39,894 nt of DNA from Jimgerdemannia flammicorona (Eukaryota). Below the pieces are notes generated by a model, which saw nothing but the letters and a program-made list of their open reading frames with translations, was not told where the DNA came from and did no database searches. The translations under genes were made by a program, and so were the position numbers. Location: positions 1 to 39,894 of the forward strand of contig RBNJ01000131.1 in the NCBI GenBank assembly GCA_003990765.1. Reading direction: 5' to 3'. Shown here piece by piece: positions 4,101 to 30,569 of this stretch; the first letter of the stretch is position 1, and each line of letters starts with the position of its first letter.

Positions 4101-4302
4101 TGTCATTTATTGGATCAGTAAGAGAGATAAAGATATCTCAAACCAGTATCTCTAGTAATTATTTTATAGATAACTATATACTAAGAAATACAACTATATT
4201 GATAAAATAAGTTCATAAAATAGGCCATTATATCTATATAGAGATATAGCCCTTAGCTACTCTTCTCTCTACCTATGATAGGGAAGGTTATTAATTTTCA
4301 AG
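1200..4302 (+). pseudogene. Element E gag/protease region, degenerate
   Basis: Gag-like IFAEYPEEDLREFFDEIER (ORF 1536-1766); aspartic protease motif remnant near 3190; numerous stops; start boundary approximate. Confidence 0.6.
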
Positions 4303-4306
4303 ATAG

Positions 4307-5878
4307 TGTTATGTAGTGGTCACTGAGTCCTTCAAATATACCAGATTCTCTTTAAGATACATATATCTCTTAGACTAACTCAAGTTTGTTATAAGCAAGT
4401 TCTTATTGGAGTACCTTCCTAAGATCTTATAGTCCTCAAACTTCTTATCTTTAAACTGTCTTGTTATCTCTTTAGATTGCTTGTAAGAAATTGTGTATAA
4501 GTGAACCAGAACTGACTTTATTTCAAAGGAAATAAGAGGGGTATTTATACAAAATATAATTCAATAGTTGCTAATATATAAAGCTAAATATAAATTCCAA
4601 TAATCAAAACAAAATACCAGGACAGAAAAACTGCTAAGTTCCAGAGTTGGCACTGATAGTTGTATAGGTTCAGGATACTGGTATAATTTTGGTGGTATAG
4701 AAAAATAGTGCTGAAATAATTCAATATCACATCAGAATGCCAGTGTTGGCATAATTCAGTATCATATCAGAATGCCAGTACTGGCATAATTCAGTGTCAC
4801 CAAAGAACTTTAGAGTAGAATATTCAAGACTATAGGGCTTCATTCTCATCAGAGGTCAGGATGTCTTTGAAGGAGATGAGGTCTACAAATTCATCATCAT
4901 CATATAGGTTGTATGTTTTATATATATTATGTATCTCATGTATATCATATGGAATAATGTCATTATGTTCAGCAGTAGTAGAAATAAGGAGGTCTGGGGC
5001 TCTCTAGTCTATGAGGTTCTCTTCCACAAAATAGGGAACAAATATGGGGTCTTAGGGAGGTCTAATCTAAATGCTTGGGCCTTAGAATACTGAGATCAAT
5101 CCTTGCAGGAATTGGTCTGGGTTGTCCTGGAGGATGGGATGCTGGAAGTCTTCTACTTCATCACTATTGAGGGTGATAGTAGACTGGGCTTCTGTAGCCA
5201 CCCTGGCTTCTAGTGCATTGATACAGTAGGCTGACAGATCTCTGAAGTCTGAGACTCTAACATACTCTAAGTTGGGGATTGACTATGGTGCATGCCTGAA
5301 GATCTGATAGATCTTCTTAGCTGTCCTTGTTTTGCATATATCTATGGGAATGACATCTTGTAGCTCTTGAGTACTGGTCTGTGGAAACTTCCAGCAGAGG
5401 AGGTTTCCTATCTCATACTCCTGCTATATTTGGAGGTATTCAGTAGCAATGGTGATTCTTGTTTCCATTTCACAGTGGTAGAGGATATAATGATAAGAAT
5501 CACTAATACCCAGGTTGACACAAAGAGTCCTTCTTGAGTAGGTCCTCATGGCTCTTCTGATGTCTTGGAACATTCTTTCTTCAACTGAGGTATCTTGATA
5601 GTTCCTTGATCTTGAGGTTTGATGAGCAGCAGACATTTTGTTTATGGTAAGTCATTGAGCTATTTTGAGATTGGTGGGTCTTATTAGTTGCTGCTACTGT
5701 GGTTCCTTGATCCTTCTTTTATATTCCTTAAGATACCCATACTGTGGTCACAATAACTCACAGTTGGTCATTATTGCTCATCTTGTATACTGTATGATCT
5801 CCTTGTGCTTTGATCTGGTGGCTTACAAGGAAAGGCTGTCTCCTGTACTGATGTCATCATTCTGGGATCATTGTTACA
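4307..5878 (-). repeat. 3' LTR of element B (1572 bp)
   Basis: TGTTATG...TGTTACA; homologous along its length to 12137-13720 and 28943-30569; abuts the PPT; ~32-bp tandem repeats at ~4670-4800. Confidence 0.95.
4810..5636 (-). pseudogene. LTR-encoded accessory ORF of family B, copy 1 (stops and a frameshift)
   Basis: MSAAHQTSRSRNYQDTSVEERMFQDIRRAM..., collinear with the 12636-13478 copy. Confidence 0.75.
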
Positions 5879-5888
5879 TCTTTCTCCT
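5879..5888 (-). promoter_or_regulatory. Polypurine tract of element B
   Basis: AGGAGAAAGA on the minus strand immediately before the 3' LTR. Confidence 0.85.
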
Positions 5889-5912
5889 GAATAAGAATCT
5901 TCTTGAATATTC

Positions 5913-6227
5913 TTATTCATTGGTCCAGTCTTGAAAAATTTGCTAATCCCATAACCTCTGGCAAGGGGTTGAAAAGTGGTGTTTATGGGCTAGTATCTTT
6001 TCTTTGTATTTTGGCATGATGGTGAAGGGTTGCTCTCTTCATATAGAGCAAGGACCTGATTCTGATCTTAACCAATCAGTTGATGGTTCAAACTCCTCTA
6101 GCTTTGAAAGTCTCATGGATGAGTAGTTGCTGGTACCATATCCCTTAGAGAATGGTTCAGACAGATAGTTTGCTGGTCATGAGACATGCTGTTACGATTT
6201 GTGGACTAGAATCTTATGGGCAGTCAT
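5913..6227 (-). pseudogene. Extra ~104-codon ORF between integrase and PPT of element B, function unknown
   Basis: ATG 6 nt after the IN stop; MTAHKILVHKS*QHVS*PANYLSEPFSKGYG...GPCSI*REQP...HKHHFSTPCQRLWD*QIFQDWTNE; frame is kept and four internal stops are explicable by C>T/G>A. Confidence 0.45.
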
Positions 6228-6233
6228 TATATT

Positions 6234-7443
6234 TTACTTCTCTTGTATAGATTCATGGTACTTCTTGAGTCTGCTCCTATATACCATAGTAAGCAGTATG
6301 GTCTCTGAGATTTTTCTAAGCTAGAAGGTAGTTCCCTTAATATCTTGCATATAGAAGGGTCCTTCTCATTTGGGCTCCAGTTTTTGCAATCATGAGGCTT
6401 CTACCATATTTCAATACAGTAGGACCTTTTCTCTGATTTGGATGGATTCTAGAGTCTTGTGATTCTTTTCTGCATTTTTCTTTATCAGTACTTATGACTT
6501 GATGATACATATAATCTTCAGCCTTCTTCTTGATTTGGTATAGTCTCCAGATTTCTGCATTGACCCATCTCCAAGTTAGGTCTAGATTTGTGGCTAAGGT
6601 TCCATCAGAATCTTCTTCTCTGAAGAGCAGTTCTCTTGGGGTAAAGTGTGTACTCTGTGACTGTATGTCTTGTAGGACAGAGAGGGCAGTTGGGAGATAG
6701 TTATCTCAATTCTCATATATCTCTGAGATCTTCACCAGGATGTTCTTGAGGGTCTTGTTGGTTCTTTCTGTCTATCCATTTCCTTGAGAGTGATAGGCAG
6801 TAGTCTTGATGTGCTGAATCTTGTATTTCTGATACATTATCTCATAGAATCCATTGATAAATTCTGTGCTGTAGTCTGTTGTGATTTGCTTCAGTGTCTT
6901 GTAGTAGCAGATGATTTCTCAGTACAGGAAGTTAGCTATAGAGAGGGCATTGGCTTCTTGTAATGCTCCTGCTTCTATCCATTTGGTAAAGAGGTCTACA
7001 ATAACTATAATATAGTAGTTTCCTAATAGTATTACTAGTAGTAGCCCAATGATATCCATTGCAATATGGTAGAAGGAGATAGGCTCAATTCTTGATGACC
7101 TGGGTGCCTGGTCTTACTGATCTTGTTTCTGTTTTTAGTACTTATTACACTCTTTGACAAATTGGTGCAGGTCTTCTTTCATTTTGGGCCACTATATAGT
7201 TTTTCTTGCCTTGTTGTATATATTGATTCCACTTAGATATCCTTGCTCATATACTTCCTTCATTACTTGACACTTCTTATGTTCAGGTATTACTAGCTTT
7301 CCTCCTTTTCTGAGTATAATATTGTCTAGTTCAAACTGTTTTCAAGTCTGGTTGATGATAGTGATTATCTAGAGTTTGAGGTAGTTGGACATCTTCTACT
7401 GTCTAAGATAGCTGATTAATCTATAGTATAACTCCTTATTCAT
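6234..7443 (-). pseudogene. Integrase of element B, in a separate reading frame from RT-RH
   Basis: IAMDIIGLL, VDLFTKWIEA, TTAYHSQGNG, C-terminal GPFY; starts ATGAATAA overlapping the RH stop. Confidence 0.9.
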
Positions 7444-10400
7444 ATTGAATAGTCTTGATGGGGATATTTCAGAGTATTCTTGAGAGTATATCAGCATTGG
7501 TGTTGGTTCTTTCTGAGTGATGTTTGACAGTACAGTCATACTCTTGTAGCCTGTAGATCCATCTGGCATATATTTCTTTAGGGTTCAGAGTGTGGAATAG
7601 CCAGGCAAGAGCAGAATGATCTGTTTGAATAGTGAAGTGTTTCCTGGCTAGATAGTAGTGGAACTTGTCTACTGCTCAAACTACTGCTAAGCATTTGAGC
7701 TTGTATGACTCATAGTTCTGTTCTGCTCTGTAGGTATGTATCTCAGCTTGCATAGGAGATGACATATTCATATCCATCTTTCTTCTGAGCTAGAACTGTT
7801 CTAAGTCCTATAGCACTTGCATCTATCTGTAGAATGAATTCTAGATTTCAATCTGATCTTCTGAGGATAGGTACTTGGGTCAACCTGATCTTGAGTTTAT
7901 TAAAGGTTTCTTGGAATTTCTTGATCTATTTGAATTTTGTTTCCTTCTTCAGTAGCTCATAGATAGGTGCTGTAATATTGGAGTATTCTTTGATGAATCT
8001 TCTGTAGTAGCTGGCCAGTCCAAGGAAGGCATAGACTTCTGTGGTTGTCCTGGGTCTCGGGTAGGCTGCAACAGCCTCAATCTTCATGGAGTCTGTGTGG
8101 ATTCTGATCTGGTTGATAAGGTGTCCTAGGTAGGCAATTTCTTGAGCTACAAACTTGCATTTCTTGGGCTTGATGTAGAGGCCATGCTTCTTGAGCTTCT
8201 TGAGGGTTAGTTGTATATAGTTGTGTAGTATTGCTGAAGATGATTACATCATCAACATAAACAAAGAGACATTTTCCAATCTCATTGCTGAAGACTCTGT
8301 TCATCATTCACTGAAAACTTGCTGGGGCATTGCACATTCCAAATAGCATTCACAGGTAGATATAGGTAGCATCAGATGTAATGAAGGCTGATTTCTCACT
8401 GGCATCTTGAGTGAGACTAATCTGATGGAAGCCTGAGAACAGATCCAAGGTGGTGTAGTATTTGGCTTTACTTCCAAGAGTGGTAAGGATTTCTTAAATA
8501 TTTGGTAAGGGCTGCCTATCCTTCTTGATAATTGCATTGAACTTCCTATAGTCAATACAGAGTCTTGGTGCAAACTCTCCAGGCTTGCTTCCTTTCTTCA
8601 GAGCAAGGACAATAGGTGAAGCCCAGAGACTGATAGCTTGCTTGATGATTCTGGCTTCTTCCATTTCCTTGAGTTCTGCTCACAGCCATTCTCTGTAGAC
8701 AGATGGTATAGGTCTGGCTTTCTGGTAGATGGACTTGGTATTACCAGTGTCAACTTTGTGATAGTACTTGGGTTCTTGATTATAGATATTCCTAGTGCTT
8801 TGAACGAGTCAATCCGGATGGGATTTGGATGGATTCGAATCAACCATTGTTTTGATTGCCAAATTAGACAATTAAATGTTTACATCAATAACTTGATGAA
8901 TAATCATCCAAATTTGATGATCTTGGTGTCATTTGAAAGCCCTTAGTAAGGCCTTTCTAATGATACCAAGAACATTAAAATCGGATTACGTGTTGCCGAG
9001 ATATTAAGGAAAACGTTCCATATGACGAAATTTCCAAAATCGGCAAATCAAAGAATTTCCAAAATCGGCGATTCAGACGTTTTCCTTCATAACTCAGCAA
9101 CGCATGATCCGATTTCAATGTTCTTGGTATCATTAGATAGGCCTTATTAAGGGCTTTCAAATTACACCAAGATCATCAAATTTGGAAATCAAAACAATGG
9201 TTGATTCGAATCCGATTCGAATCTGATTTGAATCCGATTTGAATCCATCCAGATGGGATTCAAATCCCATCCAAGTTGATCCAGATGGGATTCAATCTGA
9301 ATCAATCCGAATCCAATCCAGATTAAATTGACTCGTTAGGAGCACTAGATATCCCTGAAGTCTTTAGCAAGTACTCCTTCATTCTGGTACAGGATCTTGA
9401 GAAGTTATTCTTCTAGGGGAAAGTTTTCTCCAATGGTATATGTGTGCTTGTTCTGGTCTCTGTCTTTCTTGTACTCAAGTTCGATAATCTTGGTAGTGGC
9501 ATAGACTCCTCTTCCAGTAGATCTAAAGCCTTGTTCTCCTCTCTTGGTCTTGATGAGTTCGATGGCTTCAGTGATCTTGGGCTTCTTAATTTTGTAGATC
9601 AGTATCTGGCCAATTCTGTCATGCTTCTTGACTTCAAATGAAGTAGTGGCATTGTGATTCCTGACTATGAGAAAGATCTCACCAGTGTAATCAGGGTCAA
9701 TACTCCTCCTTCAACTGAGATTTCACTTTTGGCCAGACTGCTTCTGGTCTTGATAATTCCAGTATGGTTCTCTGGCAGCTTGACTCCAATTCCAGTGCCA
9801 AGTAGGGTAGTGGTCTGTGGTTCAAGGATAGCATCTTGAATGCTGGCAAGGTCTATTTCTATAGCTCCTTTAGTCTTGTATTCTGGGATCTTGGCTTTGG
9901 GGTGAAACTTCTTAACCTTGAGGGTGATGTCTGATTCTTGTTCCTCCTCATTATTACTGTCAGCTTGAAGCTCAGGGGGCTGGTCATCTTCTTCAGCTTT
10001 CTTTTTTTCTTCAGTAGCTTCTTGCTCATATTTCTGTTGGTGGATTTTCCTAACTTTACTGATACAGAACTAGCAGTCATTCAGGTGTTCAGAGTAGTAC
10101 ATCTTAGTACCATGGGGGAATCTTCCTTGAGGGACATAGCTATTGATAATCTTGTTGTACCACTGCTCATCTGTGAGCTTGAGTGTCTTGTTCTTATTCT
10201 TGTTCACTGAGTGCATGAAGACTTCTGTGTCCTCTTCATCTCCTTCCTCTATATCTGATAAGACTCCTTTGTGAACATTGATAGAGACTCATACTTTTCT
10301 TTCTCTATAGTTGATCTGTATCTTCTAGACATTGAGGTCAATGATGGACTTGACCTTGTAAAGTCATTGGTTGCCAATGAGGATGTCATAATTGGTGGCA

Positions 10401-12016
10401 CTTATAACAATCACATCTACTGGAATAGTAGCTTCTCTTATCTTGATAGGGACTTCTTGGATTTTGCCAAGAAGGGTAGCTTATATACCATCTGCTGTGA
10501 CATAGACCATCTTGGTGGACTCTTCAATATCCCAGTCTAGGTAGTCAATTGCCTTCTTACTCATGAGGCATCCTCCAGCACTAGTATCAATAATGGCATC
10601 AAAGATACAATCTTCAATCTAATATAGAGTATAGGCTGATGTCTTGTGCTGGTCTTCAGATTCTTCACCTAAGTCTTCTGATTCTTTCTGTACATTGTGA
10701 GCTTCTACAATCTTGTACTCTTAATTCTTGGCAGTAGTTGTAAGTCCTACTCTCAACTGCTGTCTAAAGGCAGAGACTTCAGCTAGCTGTCCAAAAGTAG
10801 TATTGATCTTCTATTTCTTGAGATTCTTGTAAATATCATACTGATGGATCTTGGTCTTGCACAGCTTCTGTTCCTTCTTGCTTTCACTTTCTCCTGAGAC
10901 TGGAGTAGTACCTTCAATGATTTGGTGGGCAGCTTCATCTAACTCTATGTCTTGATCAATCTCCTCAGATTGGGTCTTGCTTTGAATAGTAACAGCTGGG
11001 GTCTTCTTTGGTCTTCCAACTGGCTTGCTATTACTCTTCTTATCATAGAGCTTAGACCAGGTTCTGGTACCTTCAGTAGCAGAATAGAATTTGAGCTCTT
11101 TATAGTATTCTTCATCATCAGTACCACCAATCTTCTTAATAACTACTGTATTGATTTGTTCTCTGGTTCTACTAGCATTGCTTGGTTGGACTTTATGTAT
11201 TGTTTCAGTCATGCAATTCTTTGTATAGTGGCCTTTTTCTCTATATCTGAAGCATATAATATTGTGTTCTTCTATAGCAGCTATAAATCTCTACACTGGT
11301 CTCCTGTTGGTACTTCAGACTTCTCTAACAACATTATCAAGGTATGCAGTCATCTTGGCAAACTTCTTGGCAAGTTCCTCCACTGGATCAGCTTTGGCTG
11401 TCTTGGGGGTAGGTGGGGTTGGTTGTCTGTTTATAACTGTAGTAAGTATGATACTAGTTGGCTTTGATGGCTCTATCTTGATGCTAGTTATTTTCTCCAT
11501 TGAGTGTTCAGCAGGGTGTCTGGCAGTCCAATATCTCTGTGCAAAGACTACTTTCTGATCAAGGGTCAGTGTAGCTGGGATAGACCAAATTGCTAGGGCA
11601 ATTTCAGAATAAACTCCTTTGAGGAAGGTTGAATCTGCTATTTGTTCCTTAAGAGTATCATCATAGCCAGCTAAGACAATTTGGTAATAGATTTGGGTAT
11701 AGAATGAGTTGGAATCTTCACTGAGTCTCTGGCAGATAGTATTGAGTTGATTCTTGAGAGCTTGCTTGATCTCTTCAGTATAGTATGTTGTTCTGAAAAA
11801 GGCCTTCATATTGGCAAGTTTGGCTGCACCATTAGTAGTAATAGTGGCTACATTGAACTTGTCTCTGACAGATCCTCTGAGGCTGACTGGTAGAAGGGCC
11901 AATTATGCATCCACACCAAGGGCTTATACAGTGGCAAATTGTTCAAAGTCTTCAATAAAGATCAGGATTGACTCTTTAATAGTATATCTATAGAATGTGG
12001 GAGGACACATTTCCAT
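7436..12016 (-). pseudogene. gag-PR-dUTPase-RT-RNaseH of element B, interrupted by a MITE at 8793-9347
   Basis: Gag ORFs 11315-11902 and 10811-11212; IIDTSAGG protease; GGVLTL/RSSLAKS dUTPase remnants; YVDD in ORF 8077-8307; RNaseH ADASAIGLRTVL. Confidence 0.9.
8793..9347. mobile_element. Non-autonomous hAT-type MITE (555 bp) inserted in pol of element B
   Basis: ~21-bp imperfect TIRs TAGTGCTTTGAACGAGTCAAT / ATTGACTCGTTAGGAGCACTA; 8-bp TSD GATATTCC (8785-8792) / GATATCCC (9348-9355); GAATC-type subterminal repeats. Confidence 0.9.
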
Positions 12017-12124
12017 CTTGTCTTGAATTCTTGCAGGGGTGACTCTTGTAGTCAGAATAGTTGTTGTGGTGGTTGTTCATTTTTCAGCTTGAAAGTGAGG
12101 GATTCATCTTGAATCACCAGCCAA

Positions 12125-12133
12125 TGGGCACCA
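12125..12133 (-). promoter_or_regulatory. Primer binding site of element B (TGGTGCCCA)
   Basis: Starts with TGG 3 nt inside the 5' LTR end; identical to the PBS of A and D. Confidence 0.85.
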
Positions 12134-12136
12134 AGT

Positions 12137-13720
12137 TATTATGTAGTGATCACTGAGTCCTTCAAATATATCAGATTCTCTTCAAGGTGTATCTCTTAGA
12201 CTAACTCAAGTTTGTTATAAGCAAATTCTTATTGGAGTGCCTTCCCAAGGTCTTATAGTTCTCAAACTTCTTATCTTTAAACTATCTTGTTATCTCTTTA
12301 GATTGCTTACAAGGAATTGTGTATAAGTGAACCAGAACTGACATTATTTCAGAGAAAATAAGAGGGGTATTTATATAAAATATAATTCAATAGTTGCTAA
12401 AATATAAAGCTAAATATAAATTTCAATAACTAAAACAAAATGCCAGAACAGAAAAACTGCTAAGTTCTAGGGTCAGTATTGATGATTGTATAGGTTCAGG
12501 ATGCTGGTATAATTTCAGTGATACAGAAAAATAGTGTTGGAATAATTCAGTATTACATCAGAATGCTAGTGCTGATATAATTCAGTGTCACATCAGAATG
12601 CTGGTGCTGGCATAATTCAGTATCACCAAAGAACTTTAGAGTAGAATGTTCAAAATCATAGAGGCTTCATCCTCATCAGAGGTCAGGATATCTTTAAAGG
12701 AGATGAGGTCTGTGAATTCATTGTTATTATATAGATTGCATATTTCATATATATCATGCATCTCACATATATTATGTGGGATGACATTATTGCCAATGAC
12801 ATTATCACATTCGACAGTGGCAGGAACAAGGAGGTCTGGGGCTCTCCAGTCTATGAGGTTCTCTTCTACAAAATAGGAGACAAATGTGGGGTCTTGGAGA
12901 GGTCTAACCTGGATGCTTGGGCCTTGGAATACTGAGATCAATCCTTGCAGGAATTGGTCTAGGTTGTCCTGGAGGATGAAATATCAGAAGTCTTCTACTT
13001 CATTACTATTGAGGGTGATAGTAGACTGGGCTTCTGTAGCCACCCTGGCTTCTAGTACATTGATATGGTGGGCTGACAGATCTCTGAAGTCTGAGACTCT
13101 AACATACTCTAAGTTGGGGATTGACCATAGTGTATGTCTGAAGATCTGATGGATCTTCTTAGCTATTCTTATTTCACATATATTCATAGAAATTGCATCT
13201 TATAGCTCTTGAGTGCTGGCCTGTGGAAACTCCCAGCATAGGAGGTTTTCTATCTTGTACTCCTACCACATTTAGAGGTATTCAGTAGCAATGGTGATCC
13301 TTGTTTCCATTTCACAGCAGTAGAGAATATAATAATAAAGGTCACCAGTATCCAGATTGATACTAGGAGTCCTTCTTGAGTAGGTTCTCATGGCTCTTCT
13401 GATATCTTGGAACATTCTTTCTTTGACTGAGATACCTTAATGATTTCTTAATCTTGAGGTTTGACAAGCAGCAGGCATTTTGTTTATGGTAAGTCTTTGA
13501 GCTATTTTGGGATTAGTGGGTCTTGTTGGTTGCTGCTACTACAGTTCCTTGATCCTTCTTTTATATTCCTCAAGATACCCATACTGTGGTTACAATGACT
13601 CACAGTTGGTCATCATTGCTCATCTTGTATGCTGTATGATCTCCTTGTACTTTGATCTGGTGGCTTACAAGGAAAGACTGTCTCCTGTACTAATGTCATC
13701 ATTCTGAGATCACTGTTATA
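12137..13720 (-). repeat. 5' LTR of element B (1584 bp)
   Basis: Direct repeat of 4307-5878; bounded by the PBS and TSD ATAG. Confidence 0.95.
12636..13478 (-). pseudogene. LTR-encoded accessory ORF of family B, copy 2 (280 codons, single frame)
   Basis: ATG 13478 to TAA 12636 without frameshift; five internal stops, all TAA/TAG/TGA derivable from CAA/CAG/CGA/TGG; includes track ORFs 12984-13187 and 12636-12941. Confidence 0.85.
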
Positions 13721-13724
13721 ATAG

Positions 13725-16700
13725 TAACTGAAAATAGTACTTTTAAGTAATGAGATACTATCTTTATAAAAAATACCCAAGCTGCCAAACTTGTCAATAT
13801 AAAAATATATACTTCAGCCAAGATATTATAGTATATATATACTTAAGAGAAAAGATGACAGAACTAAGATCAGATGGAACTGAGCCAAGAAACTCACAAA
13901 AAAGACCCTCAAGATCTATGATCTAGAAGATGATATCCTAGTTCTCATTAGATATATGTACAATTTACTAAGAATAGATAAAGAATACTATCAACTTTAT
14001 AAAAGCTCTAGACCTTACTAGAAGAGGAATTAATAATCTCTAAGACTCCTCTACTAGAGACAGATAGTAACATCTTAATATTAGAGTCTGGAGACTTACA
14101 ACTATAAAAGCTGAGGCCCAAGGATAGCCTGTCCTTAGTAAAGATATTGCATAGTATATTCTGCTATACTCTGAAGCCAGACCTATAATAAAAGCCCATA
14201 AAGAAGATATAGGCTATGATCTTTATAGTCTCTGAGATGATACTATTAGTCTGAAAAGTACAGTACTCCTTAGAATAGGAATTGCTATATAGCTATCCCA
14301 AGGAACTTATATTAAACTAATCTAAGATCTGGACTTACAAAATAAGAAATTACTATAAAAGGAGAGATAATAGACCCAAAATATATAGGTAAAATCAAAG
14401 TTATCTTAAAAAACAATAGTACTGAATAGATTCAAATCTATAAAGAAGAGAAAATTTCTCAAGTAGTCTTTAGAAAGATTGAAACATCTCAACTTCAGAA
14501 AGTCTCCAAATTGATCTGAGGCATAAGATAGACTGAAATATTTAGAAGCTCAGATAAGAAGAAAGTATATCTCCTCTAAGTCAACTACTTTAAGAAGAAT
14601 ATACCTCAATAAGGATAGTACCAACTAGTTAAACTTTTCAAGAATCTCATCCTAGAATCAGAAGAGTAGACCATTTTCAAAATCTTTGTACTACTTAATC
14701 CTAGAAACCTCTTCTTTGAACTCAATAAGGACCTCAAGAACCTAGATATAGAAGAATATATATTTCCTAATAAGATAAACTCTATATACTCTTGAGCAAT
14801 CAACCAAGACTGAGACAGTCTCATTCTGTTAAAAGAAATTATTATAGGCTATCTGGTGCCCTACCTCAATTAAATATATAGAGAAGTTTATAAACTAAAC
14901 TTATTAGAAAATAAAAAAAGGTCCTAGAAGAAAGAAAAGGCCTTTCTGTGTTCTAGGAGAAAGTAAAGTCTTGGAGAAGAATTGATACTCTAGCAATAGC
15001 AGTAACTACAGAACTTCTTCATAAATATCAGAATATCTTTACCATAGACTATGGTAATCTGTTATATAACTCATTATATCACTATAGTATAAATACAACT
15101 TATCTGACAGAAGTCTTCAAGTCCTTAGACCAGTCCTATACTTATTATATTTAAGCAAAGAGGATGAAAACTCTGTATAGATTATAGAAAGCTCAACTCA
15201 GTAATAGAAAAAGATATATAAAATTGATGATCTCTTAGACCAATTATAGGATATCAGATACTTTAACAGTATGAACCTTTTTGTAAGATTTTATAAGATT
15301 AACATAGACCCTAAGGATATTTAGAAAACAGTCTTTCTCATTTTAGAAAAACTTTTTAAATATCTCTGAATACTCTTTAGACTCTGTAATATATCTCTAA
15401 CCTTCTAGAGAATGATGAACTCAGTCTATACTCTACTGATCTACTATTATCTAATTATATATAAATAATTCTAATATCTATTCAGTAAATTTCAAAGAAT
15501 ACCTATACTATTTAGAAGAATTCTTTCAGCTTATCTTCAAGAACCACCTGAGACTTAATACTAAGAAGTATTACTTTAGAAAACAGAAACTCAAATTCCT
15601 TTTCTAAAGAAGGAATCTATATAGATATAAAAAATACTGAGAAAATTAACAATTGGCTAATACTTGAGACTTTAAAGAAAATACTATTATTTCTGATACT
15701 AGTATTCTACTATAGAAGATTTATTAAGAACTTTATCCAAATTGCTACCCAAGAAAGAATATAATAGAATGAGTGAACAAATGAGATAAAGAAGATACAA
15801 TGAGTGATTATATAACTAAGCAATGATATTACAATTAAGTATGATATATAATGAATATAATAAATAATATAAATAAGATATATATAAATAATACAGATAA
15901 ATGATATCTAGCTTATCTCCAATAACTAGTACTATAGCAAATCACTATAGCAATTGATCATTATCTAATAATCTATATTATAAAAGTTCTTATTATAAAG
16001 ATTCTAATTATAAAGATTGTGATCACAAACCTCATCTATAGTTACCAAATTAGTCACTCATACTTAGTTACAAATCATGAACTAACTTATATAAATACTC
16101 TACAGTTTTTATCTAAAATAAAGCAGTTTAGTTCAATCCTTGAATTTGAACTCTTCTCAAGAAAGAAGTACTATATAAATAGATGAAATCACAAGAACTA
16201 GCCTTCAGAGAACTCAAGTGTTACATAACTATAGTACTAATTCTTATATAACCTAATCTATAGAAGCTGTTCATCTTATATATAGATATCTTCAAAGATA
16301 GTCTTAGAGCAGTCTTAGTCTAAGAAATATCTAATCAGAAGTACTCTATATTAGCTATATAAGCTAAGCTACTAATAAGCAACATACTAATAATAGTAGT
16401 ACTAACTTAGAATATCTTATAGTTATATAAGCAGTCACTCTGTTTAAGTACTATGTATCTTATTAAAAAAAATTTTCACTCTGATAACTGATCATACTGC
16501 TCTCAAATAGCTATTTAACTATAAAAAACCTACTGAAATTTTTATTTACTGATTTTTTATCTTACAGGATTATAAGATCACTATTATTTATAAAGTAGAG
16601 AAAGTCTACAACAATATTGATATATTTTTCTACTAACTCCAATAAATCAGAAAAAAGGTATATTAAGAAACTGCATCCTAAAGGAAATTTCAATAACTAT

Positions 16701-16880
16701 TAAAGCACAAGAAGACCTCATCTGAAAGAATACCAAAAAGCCTACTAAGGATAGACAAATATAGAAAAAAAAACTATAAATAAAATACTAATACTGGCTC
16801 AACCTCAGAATATAAATCAGAATTATACTCAAGAAATATAAAACTTATCAGAAGTACTAAAGAAGACCTTTTAAGTACTA
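13725..16880 (+). pseudogene. Element E pol remnant (dUTPase, RT, RNaseH, start of IN)
   Basis: Resumes after the TSD of B; dUTPase ~14160-14550, RT ~15000-15750, RH ~16230-16630. Confidence 0.75.
15750..16225 (+). repeat. LTR-like fragment F inserted between RT and RNaseH of element E
   Basis: Non-coding interruption with TATATAAATA (~16088), AATAAA (~16117) and end ...GTGTTACA; 5' boundary and TSD not identifiable. Confidence 0.5.
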
Positions 16881-16881
16881 C

Positions 16882-17175
16882 TAGTACTTCTAAACAAATT
16901 GAATCAATTTGAATTGAATCAAATTGAGGGTAATTTAAATTGAATCAAATTAGAGATTTTTCAATTCAAATTGAGTTTGAATTAAATTGAGTTTAAATTG
17001 AATTGAGATCTAATTCAAATTGTTCTAATCAAATTGAGGTCTGATTTGATTTGAAATTGAAAGTTCTTGTTGAATTTGCCTTAATAAGATGAATCCAGTA
17101 TAATAAGAGTCATTAAATTTGGATATGTTTTTGTCAAGTTATTGAATTTCAAAAAATTTAGATTCAAAATTTAAA
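16882..17175. mobile_element. One end of an hAT-family element related to the MITEs
   Basis: TIR-like TAGTACTTCTAAACAAATTGAATC, GAATT/GAATC subterminal repeats, and 17080-17170 matches 17983-18070; no partner TIR/TSD found. Confidence 0.65.
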
Positions 17176-19659: not shown

Positions 19660-20126
19660 TGTGATGATATAGCCAGATTTGGAAGAAGGAAATAGGGAAT
19701 AGATACTTAATTGCACCCAGTCTCAAAGTAGTATAGCCACATAGTTAACAGTTCTCGATTTCGCAACTTGCTAAATATTCCGCAAAGTATAAGATCAAGC
19801 TCCCCAATATAGTATAGCATTTCGCAACTGGCGAAATATTTCACAAAGTATTAAATAACTCATAACTTAGCCACGTAACCCAGTAACCATCTCATAGCTA
19901 GCAAACTTGTATAAATAACCCAGTATCTTTGAGTGAATAAACCTCAGATTGAAATAGTTCAAAGCAAAGAGATAGCAAAGGAACTAGTAAGCCTGTAGGC
20001 AGATACACTTTGAGCTCACCCACCCTCCCCTGCAACTTCAAGAGACTCTGTGAGAGTCAGAATAGTCAAGTTTTCAAGATACAGAAATCCAACATACTTT
20101 CAAGAGTAAGCGTCTGCTACGTTACA
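19660..20126 (+). repeat. 5' LTR of element A
   Basis: TGTGA...TTACA; TATAAATA ~19910; AATAAA ~19935. Confidence 0.97.
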
Positions 20127-20129
20127 ACT

Positions 20130-20138
20130 TGGTGCCCA
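20130..20138 (+). promoter_or_regulatory. Primer binding site TGGTGCCCA (tRNA identity uncertain, His-like)
   Basis: TGG 3 nt after the LTR; complementary to a tRNA end ...UGGGCACCA. Confidence 0.8.
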
Positions 20139-20228
20139 TTGGCTGGTGATTCAAGACAAATCCCTCACTTTCAAGCTGAACAACGAACAACTGCCACTAC
20201 CTAAACCAAGCCCCAATACCCAGACAAG

Positions 20229-23200
20229 ATGGATATGAGACCACTAGTATTCCACGGATATACCTCAGATGAATCAATCATCACCTTCATTGATGATTTC
20301 AAGCAGTATGCCACTGTAAGGACCCTGACAGCAATACAGCAAGTAGCCCTCATGCTCTTTAGCCTATGAGGCCCTGCCAGAGCAGCATTCACAGCTGCAA
20401 CCCATATAGGAAACGATGCTGATGCTGTACTGACAGCACAGAAGACCTGGCTCCGAAATACATATTACACAGACAAGATCAAGCAAGCCCTGAAGGATCA
20501 GCTCAATACAACATACTAAGAAATGAGTGAGGATCCAAACACATTCTATACCAGAATTTGATATCAGATAATCCTTGCAGATTATGCTGCTGCTATCTAA
20601 GATCAAGTAGCCGAAGCAACCTTCATGAAAGGAGTCCACCCAGAAATAGCCATGGCCATCCGCTCATCACCAGTAATTCTGGATCTGCCACAGAAGATCA
20701 CCTATGCTCAGCGATATTAGATAGCCAGACATCCACAAGACCATACAATGGAAAGGGTCACAGGGGTCAGAATTGAGGCACTCAAGGCAACCAGTGTGAT
20801 CCCTATCACAATGATTAATTGGAACACACCTCAGCCAAAAGCTACAGAACAGCAGAAGAACAGTGACCCTATGGAGGAACTCGCCAAAAGGTTTGCCGAA
20901 ATGACCACCCACCTGGGAGATGTAGTAAAGGAAATTCGAGGAAGAGACTGCCACCCTGTTCAGAAGTTCGCCACCACCTCAGACAAGAAGAAAGGTACCT
21001 GCTACACTTGTGGAGAAGAAGGCCACTACTCCTATGAATGTATGAGTGAAACCAAGCACAAGGCTCAACCAAGCAATGCTATACAAAATAAGGAGCAGGC
21101 CAATATAATCACCTTTGAGGAGATTGGAGATTCTGATAAAGAAGAATGAGAGGCCTATCCAGCTCAGACCACCAAGAAGGATGCTCGCAAAAAACCCTAC
21201 AAGAGACCACCAGGAAGACCCAAGAAGAACCCAGTGGAAAAGCAGATGGAAATGGCCACCGAAAGCCAAACTGAAGAGATGGACCAAGATATAGAGCTGG
21301 AACAAGCAGTTCAAGATATTATCTGAGGAACTACTCTAGCCAGTGAAGGAGAAAAAGAAAAGAAGTTGTACAAGACCAAGACCTTCAAGTATGATATCTT
21401 CAAGGACCTCAGTCAATAAAAGGTCAATGCAACCTTTGGTCAGCTTGCAGAAATCCCAACATTCAGACAGCAAATGAGGTTTGGACTTGCCGAAACAACT
21501 AAGGAATAAGGATGGAAGATAACTGAGGCCAATAACACTCAAGAGGACTCAGGAGAAGAAAGTGAGGACAATCGCAAAACCTCTGCATATGCAACATGCC
21601 AAATCGAAGATAGAATCTTCGAGGCTATCATTGATATGGGAGCAGGAGGATGTCTCCTCAGCAAGAAGGCAGCAGACCACCTAGGTTGGGATGTGGAAGA
21701 AGCAACAAAGCTAGTGTTCATCACAGCCGATGGCATAAGAGCCACACCTCTGGGAAAGATCCGAGATGTTCCCATCAAGATTGAAGGAGCAACTATCCCA
21801 GTAGATGTAATCGTAACCAATGCCACCAACTATGACATCCTTATCGGCAATCAATGGCTTCACAAAGCCAAGGCAGTAATTGATCTCAATGCCCAGAAGA
21901 TGCAGATCACCTACTGGGGACAGAAGATACGAATTCCCATCAATGTCAACAAAGGAGTTCTGCCTGATATGGAGGAAGAAGAGAGTGAGCAAGAGGAAGC
22001 TTATATAGTGACTACTCCAAAGAAGAAGAAAGTCAGATGGATGAGTGAAGAAGAATGGTGCAAGAAGATGGCAGAAGGCTATGCACCACAAGGAGTCTGT
22101 CCTCATGGGATCAAGATGTACTGTATGGAGCATGTCAATGATTGCTACCAGTGCACCATTGGAATCAGAAAGATCCACCAGACAAGAAGGCAGAAAGCTC
22201 TTGAAAAACAGATCAGGGAAGAAAAGAAGGAGGAAGATGATGAACCACTAGCTCTCCTGGAGGACAGTAATGATGAAGAAGAAATCAAGGTCAAAATTCG
22301 AAAGATCCACCCTGATGCAGTCTTGCCAGAATATAAGTCAGAAAATGCAGCCAGAATGGACATCACTACAGTAGAAGAAACCATACTGGAACCCCAGACA
22401 ACCACCTTACTTGCAACTGGATTGGAGATGACCATCCCAAAGGATTATGTCAGGATTCTTAAGACAAGAAGCAGTCTGGCTAGAAGCAAAATTACAATCG
22501 AAGGAGAAGTCATCGATTCAGACTACACTGGAGAAATTCTACTCATTGCTAGGAATCACAATCCTACAATCCCATTTCCAGTCAAGAAGAAGGACCAATT
22601 GGCACAAATGTTGATCTTCCCGATCCTACAACCAAAGATCATAGAGGTTAAGAAGCTGAAGGAAACAAGAAGAGGAAAGAAAGGATTTGGATCCACAGGA
22701 AGAGAAGTATTCGCTAACACCAAGATCACCGAACTCGAGCATAAGAAAGAGGAAAACACAAGCAAGCACAGCTACACCATTGGAAATGAATTTCCACTCA
22801 AGAAAGAACTCAAGAAAATACTCCACGAATTCGAAGATATCCTTGCCACAGATTTCAAGGATATCAAAGGAAAGACCCCACACTACTATCACGAAGTAGA
22901 TACTGGAGACACAGAACCAATTTATCAGAAAGCAAGACCTGTCCCACCAGCCTACCAAGAATGGCTCAGAGAAGAAATCAAGCAGATGGAAGAAGCCAGT
23001 ATCATTAAAGAAGCAAGCAGCCCCTGGTCCTCACCTGTTGTACTGGCCCCAAAAAAAGGGAGTAAGCCTGGAGAATTCGCCCCAAGACTCTGTGTTGACT
23101 ACAGAAAACTCAACATGGTTACCAAGAAGGATCGCCAACCACTGCCCCTCATCAATGACATCCTCATAATACTGGGAGATGAAGCACAATACTACAGCAC

Positions 23201-24221
23201 CTTGGACTTATACTCAGGATTCCACCAAATTGGACTTACAGACATGGTAAGTGAAAAGTCAGCTTTCATCACTCCAGACGGAACCTACATCTACCTACGA
23301 ATGCCATTTGGAATATACAATGCACCAGCAAGTTTCCAGCGAATGATGAACAAAATCTTCCGCTATGACATGGGAAGATGGATGATGGTCTACATCGATG
23401 ATGTAATCATCTACAGCAAAACACCTGAGGAATATCTACAGTACATACAGCAGATAATGGAGAGACTAAGACAACATAGTCTTTACATCAAACCCAAGAA
23501 ATGCAAGTTCACAGAAATCGAGATCTCCTATCTCGGCCACATCATCAATCAAGATGGAACACACACGTACCCCCTCAAGATACAAGCAGTGGTAGCATAT
23601 CCAAGACCCACCACTGTTACAGAAGCCCAAGCCTTCATGGGACTTGCCTCCTATTATCGCAGATTTATTAGAGGATTTTCTAATATTGCGGGACCAATCT
23701 ACAAACTCAACAAGAAGGATACCAAGTTCCAGTGGACTGGCAGACAACAAAAAGCATTTGATGAACTCAAGGTCAGACTAACCCAGGCACCCATCCTCAG
23801 AAGACCTGACTGGACTCAAGAATTCATCCTACAGACTGATGCAAGTGCACAAGGACTAGGAGCAGTTCTAGCTCAAAAGAAAGATAAAGTGGAGTATGTC
23901 ATCATATACCTCAGCTGCGGAACCCGAGGAGCTGAAAAAGAATATGAATCCTACAAGTTGGAATGCCTCGCAGTCATCTGGGCCATAGAAAAGTTCCACT
24001 ACTACTTGGCTGGAAGACACTTCATCATCCAAACAGACCACTCAGCTCTCACCTGGCTACTGACAACTGGACAACCCAAAGGAATCTATGCCAGATGGAT
24101 AATGAAGTTGCAAGCTTATGACGTAACCATCATACATCGCTCTGGAAGAACTAATGCCAATGCAGATGCCCTCTCACAGATACCCCGAAGGACCCTACCC
24201 CCACAAAATCACCATGAATAA
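20229..24221 (+). pseudogene. Single-frame gag-PR-dUTPase-RT-RNaseH of element A (stops in gag; 861-aa open segment 21636-24221)
   Basis: Zn knuckle CYTCGEEGHYSYEC; protease IIDMGAG (from DTGAG); dUTPase RSSLA, VIDSDYTGEI, RGKKGFGSTG; RT LCVDYRKLN, YIDD; RH TDASAQGLGAVL, NADALS. Confidence 0.95.
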
Positions 24222-25404
24222 GGAGCTCTACTACGGAATTATCACATACCTGGGACAGTGAAAGATGCCCCAACATCTGGAAGAATAGATACAAACGATT
24301 ATCAACAGAACATGGAAACAATTCGAAACTGATGGAGAAACACTGAAGAAAGGAAAACTACTAGTCATACTAGAATACAAGAAGGAGCAAGCGATGAAAT
24401 CAGTATATGAACTTGGCCATCTAGGAGGAACAAATACATATGACAAGACAAGAAGAACAATATGGTAGCCAGGGATAGAGGAAGATATCAGATAATTCAT
24501 CAAGACCTGCAACAAATGCCAGAAACAGAAACAAGACCAACGAAATCAAGCCCCAGGTTCAGCACACATAGAACCAGTACCATTTGCCCACATTGCAATG
24601 GATATAATCGGTCCCCTACCCTTGACCTTGACTGGCAACCGATACATCATCATTATCGTAGACCTCTTTACAAAATGGATAGAAGCGGGACCCCTTATGG
24701 AAGCCAATGCACAGTCAATTGCTGATTTCTTCCACAAGGAAATCATCTGCCAGTTCAAGATCCCAACACAAGTAACTACAGATAGAGGAACTGAATTTGT
24801 GAACCAGTTCTTCGAAGTTCTCTACAAGAAGTACAAGATCCAGCATATTCGGACCACAGCATATCACCCTCAAGGAAATGGATAAGTAGAAAGGACCAAC
24901 AAAACCCTCAAGAATGTTATTGCCAAGATCTGTGATAACTACGAGAACTGGGATCACTATCTACCAATAGCATTATCTGCTCTCCGGGATATCCAATCAC
25001 AAAGCACCCACTTTACCCCTCAAGAAATGCTGTTCGGAGAAGAATGTTCTCAGGGAACCTTGTCATCCAATGGAGATACTGTATAGAAACATGTGGACAT
25101 GGAAATATGGAGACTACACCAAATCAGGAAGAAGGCTGAGAATTACATAACGAAGGCACAGACACTACAATGGAGGAATGCAGAAAAGACCCACAAATCC
25201 TTGGAGATTATCAAGATAGGAGACAAAGTCCTAGTATATCAGAATATGGTTGAAGCTTCATGGTCATGAAAACTGAAGCCCAAGTAGGAAGGACCTTACC
25301 TTGTGCAAAATATAAAAGGAACCACCTTTTGGCTATGAAAACCCTCAGGCACAATAATCCCCACCACCATTTACCGAAACTGACTCAAGAAATATCATGG
25401 CTAG
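24214..25404 (+). pseudogene. Integrase of element A, +1 frame relative to RT-RH
   Basis: GHLG...CNKC zinc domain; MDIIGPLP, TDRGTEF, YHPQGNG*VERTN catalytic core; GPY motif; several C>T/G>A stops. Confidence 0.93.
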
Positions 25405-25858
25405 TAATAAAAGTACTGTGATGGCACTTAAGATCACTAGTACTGCCCAAAGAGCCATTGAGAGACAATAGTGCACCACTGAGCCTCCAACCATAGAAGA
25501 GTCTTATGACAGTATCCAAAGCATCGTACAGACTCATCTCTCTCAGATCTCACACTTCAAGGCCTATCAGCATTGAAACGAATTCCAAGAGTACTTCAAA
25601 CTCGGCCAAGTACTCAACCAAGACCCAGAAATGACCAAAGAAAACTGGATCGCAGAATGTCAGCTCTCCTATTCCCAGATCACCATTGCCAAGAGAATCC
25701 ACAAGCTATTCCGAGAGGATGAATCAGCATTAGCCCACCTGCGAGGAGTGACTCCCTCAGACTTCGACTGAGTCAGGCAACACCATTGGGAAACAGTGAT
25801 ACAACAAATTGCACAATATAAGACCATACAGACCATTGAAGCTTGGGAGTTTGAATAG
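25397..25858 (+). pseudogene. ORF3: 153-codon accessory protein of element A
   Basis: MASNKSTVM...FQEYFKLGQVL...QITIAKRIHKLFREDESALAHLRGVTPSDFD*VRQHHW...EFE*; three internal stops (TAG, TGA, TGA), no frameshift. Confidence 0.8.
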
Positions 25859-25885
25859 ATGCTTTAGGGACGAGATCATCTATTC

Positions 25886-25894
25886 AGGAGGAAG
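25886..25894 (+). promoter_or_regulatory. Polypurine tract of element A
   Basis: AGGAGGAAG just before the 3' LTR. Confidence 0.85.
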
Positions 25895-25895
25895 T

Positions 25896-26362
25896 TGTGA
25901 TGGTATAGCCAGATTTAGAAGAAGGAAATAGGGAATAGACACTTGATTGCACCCAGTCCCAAAGTAGTATAGCCACATAGTTAACAGTCCTCGATTTCGC
26001 AACTTGCTAAATATTCCACAAAGTGCAAGATTGAGCTCCCCGATATAGTATAGCATTTCGCAACTGGCGAAACATTTCGCAAAGTGTTAAATAACTCATA
26101 ACTTAGCCATGTAACCCAGTAACCATCTCATAGCTAGCAAACTTATATAAATAACCCAGTATCTTTGAGTGAATAAACCTTAGATCGAAATAGTTCAAAG
26201 CAAAGAGATAGCAAAGGAACTAGTAAGCCTGCGGGCAGATATACTTTGAGCTCACCCACCCTCCCCTACAACTTCAAGAGACTCTGCGAGAGTCAGAACA
26301 GTCAAGTTTTCAAGATACAGAAATCTGACATACTTTTAAGAGTAAGTGTCTGCTACATTATA
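25896..26362 (+). repeat. 3' LTR of element A
   Basis: Gap-free match to 19660-20126 with about 31 substitutions. Confidence 0.97.
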
Positions 26363-28942: not shown

Positions 28943-30569
28943 TGTCACATAGTGGTTGCTGAGTCCTTCAAATATACCAGATTCTCTTCAAGGTGTATCT
29001 CTTAGACTAACTCAAGTTTGTTATAAGCAAGTTCTTATTAGAGTGCCTTCTCAAGGTCTTATAGTTCTCAAACTTCTTATCTTTAAACTGTCTTGTTATC
29101 TCTTAGATTGCTTACAAGGAAGTGTATATATTGTACTGAATTAACTGAATTGACTGAATTGACTGAATTGACTGAATTGACTGACTTTATTTCAGAGAAA
29201 ATAAGAGAGATATTTATACAAAATATAATTCAATGGTTGCTAAGATATAAAGCTAAATATAAATTCCAATAACTAAAATAAAATGCCAGGGCAGGAAAAA
29301 CTACTAAGTTCCAGGGTCAGTACTGATAGTTGTACAGGTTCAAGATGCTGGTATAATTCAGTATTATATCAAATACTTACTGGTATTATTCAGTATTATA
29401 TCAAATACTGGTGCTGGCATTATTCAGTATTACATCAAATACCGGTGCTGGCATTATTCAGTATTACATTAAATACCAGTACTGGTATTATTCAGTATAA
29501 CAAAAAACTTAGAGCAGAAAGTTCAGGACTATGGAGGCTTCATCCTCATTGTTACTGAAGAAGATAAGATCCATAAATTCATCATTATTGTATAGGTCAT
29601 ACATTTCACATGTTTCAATGTTGTGTGAGATAACATCATCACTGATGATGTCATCACATTTGGCAGTGGCAGAAACAAAGAGATCTGGAGCTCTCTAGTC
29701 TATAAGGTTCTCTTCCACAAAATAGAGGACAAATGTGGGATCTTGGGGAGGTCTAATCTGGATACTTGGGCCTTAGAATACTGAGATCAACCCTTGCAGG
29801 AATTGGTCTGAGTTGTTCTGGAGAATAGGATGCCAGAAGTCTTCTACTTCATTACTATTGAGGGTGATAGTGGACTGGACTTCTATAGCCACTCTGGCTT
29901 CTAGTATATTGATATGGCAAAATGACAGGTCTCTGAAATCTAAGACTCTAATATACTCCAAGTTGGAGATTGACTATAGTACATGCCTGAAGATCTGATG
30001 GATCTTCTTAGCTGTCCTTACCTCATATATATCCATAGGAGTGGTATCTTGTAGCTCTTGAGAGCTGGCCTGTGGGAACTTCCAGCAGAGAAGGTTTCTT
30101 ATTTTGTACTCCTGTCATATTCGGAGGCATTCAGTAGCAATAGTGATCCTTGTTTCTATTTCATGGTAGTAGAGGATATAATAATAAGGGTCACCAGTAC
30201 CCAGGTTAATACTAGGAGTCTCTCTTGTATATGTCCTCATAGCTCTTCTGATATCTTAGAATATTCTTTCTTCAACTAAGGTATCTTGGTGGTTCCTTGA
30301 CCTTGAGGTTTGGCAGGCAGCAGACATTTTGTTTGTGGTAAGTCTTTGGGCTATTTTGGGATTGGTGGGTCTTATTGGTTACTGCTACTGTGGTTTCTTG
30401 ATCCTTCTTTTATATTCCTCAGAATGCTTGTATTGTGGTCACAATGACTCACAGTTGGTCATTGTTGCTCATCTTGTATGTCATATGATCTTCTTGTGCT
30501 CCAATCTGGTGGCTTGCAAGAAAAGACTATCTCCTGTACTGATGTCATCATTCTGGGGTCACTGTTACA
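28943..30569 (-). repeat. Solo LTR of family B (1627 bp)
   Basis: TGTCACA...TGTTACA; TSD ATAT (28939-28942, 30570-30573); homologous to the B LTRs; private GAATTGACT expansion ~29137-29185 and ~31-bp repeats 29345-29500. Confidence 0.93.
29509..30327 (-). pseudogene. LTR-encoded accessory ORF of family B, copy 3
   Basis: Includes track ORF 29773-29961 (EYIRVLDFRDLSFCHINILEARV). Confidence 0.75.

Follow-up and report, generated by a model that had tools for sequence, protein, structure and literature searches.

A candidate protein-coding gene within the long terminal repeats of a dUTPase-bearing Ty3/Gypsy retrotransposon family in Jimgerdemannia flammicorona

The reading frame inside the family B LTRs

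We analysed a 39,894-nucleotide stretch of Jimgerdemannia flammicorona DNA (GenBank assembly GCA_003990765.1, contig RBNJ01000131.1; hereafter the window), an AT-rich nest of retroelements with a GC content of 26-29% between repeats. Our subject is a full long terminal repeat (LTR) retrotransposon, termed family B, together with a solo LTR of the same family, and in particular an open reading frame (ORF) that lies within all three of these LTRs. Coordinates of the features are collected in Table 1. As the element runs on the minus strand, sense denotes the minus strand for family B. It is flanked by the 5-bp target site duplication (TSD) ACTAT (13725-13721 and 4307-4303) and has the make-up of an LTR retrotransposon, with two direct LTRs, a primer binding site (PBS) beside the 5' LTR and a polypurine tract (PPT) beside the 3' LTR. 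Self-BLAST, direct reading of the borders and a three-copy alignment place the LTR ends within 1-3 nt of the coordinates given in an initial annotation of this DNA. The 5' LTR begins with T(A<-G)TAACAG and terminates in ..ACTACATAA(T<-C). At the other end of the element, TGTAAC... opens the 3' LTR after the PPT; the LTR end reads ...ACTACATAAC. By self-BLAST the two element LTRs are 87.2% identical over 1584 columns (4309-5876 against 12139-13718), and the solo LTR (~28950-30570) is 79.7% identical to each of them.

The family B LTR consists of a 242-nt leader, the ORF, an array of 35-nt repeats, a TATA box and the LTR end, with ~280 nt from the TATA box to the end. The whole ORF thus falls between the LTR 5' end, which adjoins the PPT, and the promoter-proximal part, its stop codon preceding both repeats and TATA. 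Frame analysis, Tandem Repeats Finder (TRF) and the alignment agree with the initial annotation that all three LTRs hold one sense ORF in this place. Its ATG (13478, 5636 and 30327) is found 242 nt inside the LTR start in three copies with different flanks, and all three copies finish at a common TAA. The sense frame contains few stops (5 in 280 codons in the 5' LTR, 8 in 274 in the 3' LTR and 5 in 272 in the solo LTR), while the other five frames have 10-26, with 17 expected from base composition. The eight stops of the 3' LTR copy comprise six in register and two beyond a 1-nt deletion close to the C terminus; this copy also has a 15-nt in-frame deletion. In-register internal stops number 16 in all and fall on 12 codon positions; a single transition separates every one of these stops from a CAA, CAG or TGG codon of another copy, so that the earlier description of the 5' LTR copy as one frame with only transition-type stops holds. 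Being wholly within the LTR, the ORF is present twice per element and is kept once in a solo LTR. The 35-nt array varies in copy number between the LTRs (x2.4 at 4716-4800 and x4.7 at 29346-29502 by TRF). A palindrome in the repeat was considered and rejected; it is present in one copy only and is accounted for by transitions.

Soil-metagenome data give a second view of the LTR as a unit. In run X1, 1622 short contigs of at least 80% likeness fall on 11900-13900, with a depth of ~1500 over the ORF core that is similar to the ~2000 over the R/U5 end. Cover is 38.7 in 13709-13775 and then 0 past the outer LTR border, and it goes on at the internal side. One X3 contig enters unlike letters at 13723, which points to another insertion site. 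Contig depth is low over 12503-12837, the repeats and the variable ORF tail. An X3 contig also has a loose end at 12137, where the B-type leader and PBS side is followed by letters like the reverse complement of an A-type LTR end; judged from this junction, relatives with a B-like leader and a short A-like LTR may exist.

Table 1. Positions of the family B element, its LTR-borne ORF and related features in the window
Feature	Position (strand)	Description	Basis
Family B full element	5' LTR 13720->12138, internal 12137->5879, 3' LTR 5878->4308 (-)		
Family B 5' LTR	12138..13720 (-)	1583 bp	Self-BLAST, borders read directly, three-copy alignment
Family B 3' LTR	4308..5878 (-)	1571 bp	Self-BLAST, borders read, three-copy alignment
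Family B solo LTR	28944..30569 (-)	Flanking 5-mers GATAT/AATAT	Self-BLAST, borders read, alignment
LTR-borne ORF, 5' LTR copy	12636..13478 (-)	280 codons + TAA; stops at codons 14, 69, 72, 93, 165	
LTR-borne ORF, 3' LTR copy	4810..5636 (-)	In-register stops at codons 71, 118, 185, 190, 195, 211	
LTR-borne ORF, solo-LTR copy	29509..30327 (-)	Stops at codons 24, 71, 118, 185, 211; two 12-nt in-frame deletions	
Candidate internal promoter, TATAAAAG box	13558..13565 (-)	80-87 nt upstream of ATG	Inferred
35-nt tandem array	12532..12626 (-)	Between ORF stop and main TATA; x2.7	TRF
Main TATA box TATATAAATA	12368..12377 (-)	Collinear with TATA block of family A LTR	
PBS TGGTGCCCATTGGCTGG	12117..12133 (-)	4 nt past 5' LTR end	
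Family B internal region	5879..12137 (-)	gag, dUTPase, reverse transcriptase, integrase, then ~380-nt ORF-less spacer; heavily mutated	
PPT AGGAGAAAGA	5879..5888 (-)	Directly before 3' LTR	
Family A copy 1	19660..26362 (+)	LTRs 19660-20126 and 25896-26362, 467 bp each	Self-BLAST, Pfam
Family A homologue of ORF N-terminal (helical) half	25397..25873 (+)	Integrase stop to PPT, outside LTR; 2 internal stops	
Family C solo LTR C1	35564..37627 (+)	2064 bp, TGTAAG...TTACA, flanks TTACC/TTACT; inserted in LINE	
Family C solo LTR C2	27055..28558 (+)	1504 bp, TSD AATAA/AATAA; no recognisable ORF in middle	

Coding evidence, selection and decay

Open homologues of the LTR frame exist outside the window. 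A word-indexed search of 5.8 billion proteins yielded 704 candidates, five of which reached E<=0.01. One of these (P0001) is an uninterrupted protein of 271 aa that is 68% identical to the 5' LTR ORF at 100% query coverage and has the ORF's own start (MPAA.QTSR...) and end (..LNFLL); another homologue (P0002) has 247 aa. When 1.84 billion cluster representatives were searched with a profile, six proteins were found at E<=1e-3, four of them at E<=1e-10, with identities as low as 22-28%; relatives with 22-46% identity to P0001 still have open frames. The chance of an open frame of 271 codons at this base composition is ~4e-8. At each of the 12 codon positions where a window copy has an internal stop, the homologues have Q, W or R; at the stop at codon 69, run X1 has a Gln letter in 400.9 of 410.2 depth over 16 contigs. 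The family alignment contains 48 invariant columns, concentrated in positions 142-251.

The position of the frame relative to the retrotransposon is repeated in a metagenome contig (L001) that is collinear with 7615->5516 of the window at 83.7% identity. L001 reads an open integrase (Integrase_H2C2, rve), its stop, a ~380-nt spacer, the PPT, the LTR start and the first 40 ORF codons, which is the order of the window. Together with the three differently flanked copies and the X1 cover, this shows that the ORF truly lies inside the LTR. It is the one related locus found in metagenome contigs, and none was found in viral contigs or in prokaryote genome contigs.

To separate selection from decay, we used the differences between the two LTRs of one element as a neutral control, since such LTRs are identical at insertion. 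The control pair differs at 50, 30 and 37 sites in codon positions 1, 2 and 3 (p 0.07). At sites where the element LTRs agree and the solo LTR differs, which include divergence from before insertion, the counts are 22, 18 and 42 (chi-square p 0.0024). The check for codon-position bias that had been suggested thus comes out in favour of a gene, with the excess at third positions confined to divergence between lineages. Read from these substitution patterns, purifying selection between lineages shows that the gene was kept while family B was transposing, and by the same comparisons together with the homologues the LTR frame truly encoded a protein and was under selection in the past.

What the window holds today are the remains of this gene. 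Transitions outnumber transversions 182:8 between the two LTRs of the element, and 0-2 CpG are left per LTR. Compared with the less damaged L001, 217 changes in the window are C>T/G>A and 50 run the opposite way, with CpG going from 61 to 1 and CpA and CpC also hit. Over long stretches of the window, e.g. 1-8000 and 10001-18000, CpG observed/expected is 0.00-0.02. From this spectrum, the decay of the repeats is a C->T hypermutation, either methylation-driven or of the type of repeat-induced point mutation, and AT-rich DNA that looks intergenic may be old repeats mutated past recognition. The three ORF copies in the window are pseudogenes, killed after insertion by genome-wide C->T hypermutation. 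Three stops (codons 118, 185 and 211) are common to the 3' LTR and solo LTR copies; they seem to be parallel hits at hot spots and not ancestry, because codon 71 is TAG in one of these copies and TGA in the other. The initial annotation had proposed that solo LTRs become dispersed gene cassettes. This is physically true, as the solo LTR does contain the ORF, but all three copies in the window are dead. A reassigned genetic code with stops read as Gln or Trp was also considered and is ruled out by the 903-codon family A pol frame, which is stop-free under the standard code, and by the stops following the C->T pattern of non-coding sequence.

Proposed expression, predicted protein and known parallels

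We consider the ORF to be a true accessory gene of a dUTPase-bearing Ty3/Gypsy clade that lies wholly within the family B LTR. This is the best explanation overall, and we put its probability at roughly three in four. It is established that reverse transcription copies the sequence from the PPT to the RNA 3' end into both LTRs. For family B, reverse transcription would copy everything between the PPT and the RNA end to both ends of the new DNA, and the gene would for this reason be inherited as part of the LTR, twice per element, and be kept in solo LTRs. If the downstream TATA is taken as the genomic promoter, the gene would lie in U3 and be the 3'-most cistron; this assignment to U3 is based on the TATA position and on collinearity with the family A LTR. 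By analogy with the sag gene of mouse mammary tumour virus (MMTV), the gene would use a subgenomic message, made either from the TATAAAAG box or by splicing, and ending at the LTR poly(A) site. The block AAGGAATATAAA(A/G)GAAGGA is the same or nearly so in L001 and the three window copies and is the best-conserved stretch of the 242-nt leader. The leader (13720-13479, minus strand) has no indels among the three copies. It also contains a pyrimidine tract followed by AG (TCTTTCCTTGTAAG), kept in the three window copies and variant in L001, which judged by its letters may act as splice acceptor. The short ORF that opens further upstream, at the first ATG of the LTR, is not conserved in L001.

Several points weigh against this reading. 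The homologues all lie on metagenome contigs of ~1-2 kb, and LTR context is visible only for L001. Nei-Gojobori omega among the window LTR copies is 0.57 for the control pair and 0.28-0.38 against the solo LTR, values that are biased by the extreme transition excess, so that only the contrast with the internal control counts. Random indels had been named as an observation that would speak against a gene: three of the four ORF indels (15, 12, 12 and 1 nt) are multiples of 3, compared with one of nine outside the ORF, which leans towards a kept frame and is marginal (Fisher p 0.052). The internal TATA-like box is a conserved 8-mer and no more. Finally, no RNA run with the sequence is listed, the matches being three soil-metagenome DNA runs of one study with shares of 0.15, 0.06 and 0.00.

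Placement of the ORF within the LTR can be read differently. If the genomic transcript started at the TATAAAAG box, the ORF would lie in R instead of U3, with the LTR poly(A) site far downstream, a terminal redundancy of ~1.4 kb and the ORF as both the first cistron (in the leader before gag) and the last. In favour of this, no other part of the leader is as well conserved as the box across four of four sequences. However, the downstream TATA block is collinear with that of the short, ORF-less family A LTR, 13 of 15 positions agreeing with TT(A/G)TATAAATA(A/C)CCC and 12 of 13 in the next block, a similarity that is weak on its own; the repeat array sits directly upstream of this TATA in an enhancer-like position, and for LTR elements we know of no R that comes near 1.4 kb in length. 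We regard a placement in R as improbable. A bolder version of the gene itself would make each B LTR a self-contained unit with its own TATA (13565->13558), a 280-codon ORF and a poly(A) site, encoding a DNA-binding transactivator with a helix-turn-helix (HTH)-like helical core and an acidic tail that would act on the 35-nt repeats just downstream; solo LTRs would then be body-less sources of the protein, and the arrangement would be old and common with the LTR of a further family in the window, family C. Such a gene would serve as a retrotransposon "public good", keeping the promoters of the family active and persisting after the elements that dispersed it are gone. We think this version unlikely.

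Returning to the accessory gene, its product is predicted to be a soluble, acidic protein with an all-helical core at residues ~47-150, the part common with family A, and a disordered acidic tail. The isoelectric point is 4.5, residues 21-40 form a basic patch (net +6) and the last 70 residues are strongly acidic. AlphaFold2, run on a 9-sequence alignment, gave a mean predicted local distance difference test (pLDDT) score of 60.6, with residues ~60-160 at 80-93 and 187-271 below 50. The modelled core has six helices (47-83, 89-95, 100-113, 117-122, 129-132 and 136-149). The highest Kyte-Doolittle 19-residue mean is 0.55-1.05 in the six family members tested, none exceeding 1.05, so no hydrophobic segment is seen in any of them, and none of the six has the signal peptide or transmembrane segments of an Env-like ORF3 product.

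The protein is an orphan family without Pfam, PDB or fold match. Pfam has no family at E<=0.01 for the window ORF and none at E<=1 for P0001, four further homologues (P0009-P0012) and two pieces of the related ORF in the family C LTR C1. The basic patch, the possibly nucleic-acid-binding helical core and the acidic disordered tail of the model together resemble a regulator, and by analogy with the Cer1 protein CERV it might act in the nucleus to control how the element itself is transcribed or how its RNA is handled. It would, with low confidence, bind nucleic acid in the nucleus and promote the element's own expression. This function is a guess, and a doubtful one, made without a Pfam, PDB-sequence, Foldseek or language-model match. 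A sequence profile search of PDB gave 0 matches at E<=10, Foldseek against PDB gave 0 at E<=0.001 (best E 0.88), and two ESM Atlas queries reached at best 0.83 and 0.88, under the bar of 0.9. VIA-align found ParB/SopB/VirB-type HTH domains as best matches to model residues 68-153 (Z 4.3-4.4, rmsd 3.8-4.7, 76-80 residues), values that lie within the tool's noise band for helical models, any Z<8 being possibly just a common arrangement; its wide search returned 0 of 48,161 chains at Z>=5.

Two minor observations concern the protein. The same 244-aa cluster with 61 members ranked top in both ESM Atlas queries and serves as a lead only. The C-terminal end of family A Gag (21066-21155 and 32156-32215) has an acidic motif, ..ANIITFEEIGDSD.EE, that resembles DLISFEDI..SDEDE in the ORF tail. 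The similarity is not significant (i-E 3.1; E 0.52) and may reflect a common short linear motif or chance.

Genes that reach into LTRs are known from retroviruses. HIV/SIV nef and foamy-virus bel/bet are 3'-terminal regulatory or accessory genes that overlap U3 and begin upstream of the PPT, and foamy viruses have an internal promoter for their transactivator. These genes overlap U3 in part, whereas the B ORF and its 242-nt leader are entirely inside the LTR. The superantigen Sag of MMTV, a betaretrovirus, is a membrane glycoprotein, in contrast to the B protein with no hydrophobic segment. The precedent that the initial annotation had named in MMTV sag is sound, most of that gene being located in U3 of an LTR and several promoters, one of them within U3, having been described (PMC4667437). 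Like the B ORF, sag is a protein gene that lies past the PPT with most or all of its length in the LTR, so that it is doubled in the LTRs and kept by solo LTRs. Unlike sag, to which it has no sequence relation (no Pfam match), the B ORF belongs to an env-less Ty3/Gypsy retrotransposon and not to a retrovirus.

Accessory genes of LTR retrotransposons have been described downstream of pol. They encode lineage-specific orphan proteins in sense orientation, some of them nuclear (PMC7264820), and for CERV, the orphan accessory protein of the Ty3/Gypsy element Cer1, a spliced mRNA and a requirement for genomic RNA export have been reported (PMC10309623). The family A homologue fits this class exactly, being internal and upstream of the PPT. 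In the portions of these sources at hand, such genes are described in the internal region (PMC7264820, PMC10309623), whereas the B ORF lies beyond the PPT, in the LTR, and there is no profile hit in the pre-PPT spacer; the phrases "within/in/inside the LTR" are absent from the accessible text of PMC7264820. A dUTPase between protease and reverse transcriptase is known from Gypsy elements of basidiomycetes, e.g. PosPlaTy3-5 of Postia placenta (PMC2864245), and LTR elements of bdelloid rotifers combine a dUTPase with varied ORF3 cargo (PMC5408684). The dUTPase-bearing Gypsy elements of basidiomycetes, Tuber and bdelloid rotifers thus likewise have the enzyme, but an LTR-borne ORF is not described for them in the portions of these sources at hand. 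A full-text literature search, with most subscription journals and Repbase outside its scope, found no LTR-borne protein gene in Ty3/Gypsy. As read from sequence, an arrangement of the sag type would therefore seem new here for a retrotransposon that lacks env and whose LTR protein belongs to an orphan family, an earlier description being possible.

LTRs are "ordinarily non-coding" (PMC4667437), and they are treated as non-coding control regions. Annotation pipelines mask LTRs and ignore solo LTRs. If our reading is true, the sag/nef-type arrangement extends from retroviruses to env-less retrotransposons, the copy number of the gene follows the number of LTRs and not that of elements, and solo LTRs can keep coding capacity. 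The interest of the case is tempered by the window copies being dead.

Related families, the PPT border and neighbouring elements

Family A, a relative of family B in the window, has the same domains at 65-69% nucleotide identity (self-BLAST, Pfam). Its pol combines protease (PR; RVP), dUTPase, RVT_1 and RNaseH in one open 903-aa ORF, with the integrase (IN; rve) downstream. The Ty3/Gypsy (Metaviridae) domain order PR-RT-RNaseH-IN is found in full in A; in B we find dUTPase (9665-10069) and RVT_1 (7926-8243), followed by integrase as seen through the collinear L001. The best pol relatives are metagenome proteins with a top identity of 54%. The PBS is the same in family B and both copies of family A, with exact matches at 12117-12133(-), 20130-20146(+) and 31187-31203(+), and three matches occurred in 0 of 100 shuffles. 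The window contains no tRNA gene, and no Rfam family was found in it either.

The initial annotation had placed a homologue of the ORF in family A outside the LTR, just before the PPT. This homologue is real. It was detected by tblastn (E 6.9e-4), by hmmsearch with a profile built solely from metagenome proteins and no window sequence (i-E 1.7e-8, hit 25424-25834) and by hhalign (probability 94.5%, E 8e-8). Its frame of ~150 codons opens at the integrase stop and closes ~10 nt short of the PPT (25886-25894), and it corresponds to the N-terminal half only (profile positions 7-143 of 260). The further proposal, an upstream shift of the PPT/LTR boundary by which the gene was captured, is possible and finds no support. 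The PPT and first LTR bases are conserved in A and B, TATTCAGGAG(G/A)AAG(T/A)TGT matching only 25881-25898 and 5876-5893, and in 0 of 300 shuffles was the score of L001 against the family A PPT block reached. The ~380-nt pre-PPT spacer of B has no similarity to the family A ORF region (a score at least as high arose in 280 of 300 shuffles), profile search and shuffle comparison gave no ORF relic in this spacer, and no PPT relic was seen after the B ORF in the three-copy alignment. With the PPT/LTR-start block conserved and no relics, gene and PPT block stand in opposite order in A and B. Possible routes, from the sequence arrangement, are a duplication of the ~25-nt PPT/att block across the gene, in either direction, or a shift of the gene that brought it into U3 or took it out.

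Family C is represented by two solo LTRs, which have their first ~40 nt and last ~730 nt in common and differ in unrelated middles of 1.3 kb (C1) and 0.74 kb (C2). The middle of C1 contains an ORF of ~380 codons with one frameshift and two stops; its ATG, at 35795, is 231 nt into the LTR, and it extends to 36948. The N-terminal part matches the family profile weakly (hmmsearch i-E 1e-3; hhalign probability 38%, E 3.3e-4), and on this similarity the C1 ORF is probably a distant homologue of the B LTR ORF. A probable homologue at a like offset in the unrelated-looking C LTR suggests that the in-LTR state is old and not a recent capture specific to B. An ORF straddling the PPT/LTR border in family C was considered and rejected, the common TGTAAG.. 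start and the TSDs at 35564 and 27055 placing the ORF inside a longer LTR. In this clade the middle of the LTR seems to be a slot for exchangeable cargo. Families A (gene before the PPT), B (in the LTR) and C (probably in the LTR) would form a natural series on how cargo crosses the PPT border.

This modularity, seen in C1 and C2 and also in the A and B LTRs, which are alike only in the terminal and TATA blocks, would also suit an ORF block that is foreign cargo, a captured host gene or nested mobile element with no role in the life cycle of the retrotransposon, as would a protein without a known family. Against this, homologues are found only in retroelement context (at the A 3' end in sense orientation, probably in the C LTR and beside a B-type integrase in L001), no longer or fused form of the protein, cellular or otherwise, occurs among 2424 candidates, an absence that the search tool rates as weak evidence, and the purifying selection between B lineages indicates that the gene was kept during transposition of the family. 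Foreign cargo is thus a highly unlikely explanation. That there is no gene at all, but a chance open stretch or a never-selected dead relic with gene-caller artefacts as metagenome proteins, is scarcely credible: each copy in the window is broken by stops, the homologues bear no annotation or just the name "hypothetical protein" and sit in clusters of 1-2 members, and the Atlas model of P0001 is poor (pLDDT 0.35), yet this conflicts with the intact homologues, open at such low identity and at such a low chance expectation, with Q, W or R at the window stop positions, with the third-position excess and the clustered invariant columns, and with the confident helical core in AlphaFold2.

The remaining parts of the window are other repeats. 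A second copy of family A (30953-35382) is 84-87% identical to copy 1. It is without the first ~232 nt of the 5' LTR, its match to copy 1 ends at the integrase start, and it has a 48-nt A run (34262-34309) within the reverse transcriptase frame, read as a lysine run. A fragment of a non-LTR long interspersed nuclear element (LINE) covers 35383-35563 and 37628-39894, with a GC content of up to 54% and RVT_1 hits at 37472-38617, and abuts the break of family A copy 2 at 35382. As its frame appears to continue on either side of C1, C1 was inserted into the LINE. The window itself opens with an 89-nt A run (1-89).

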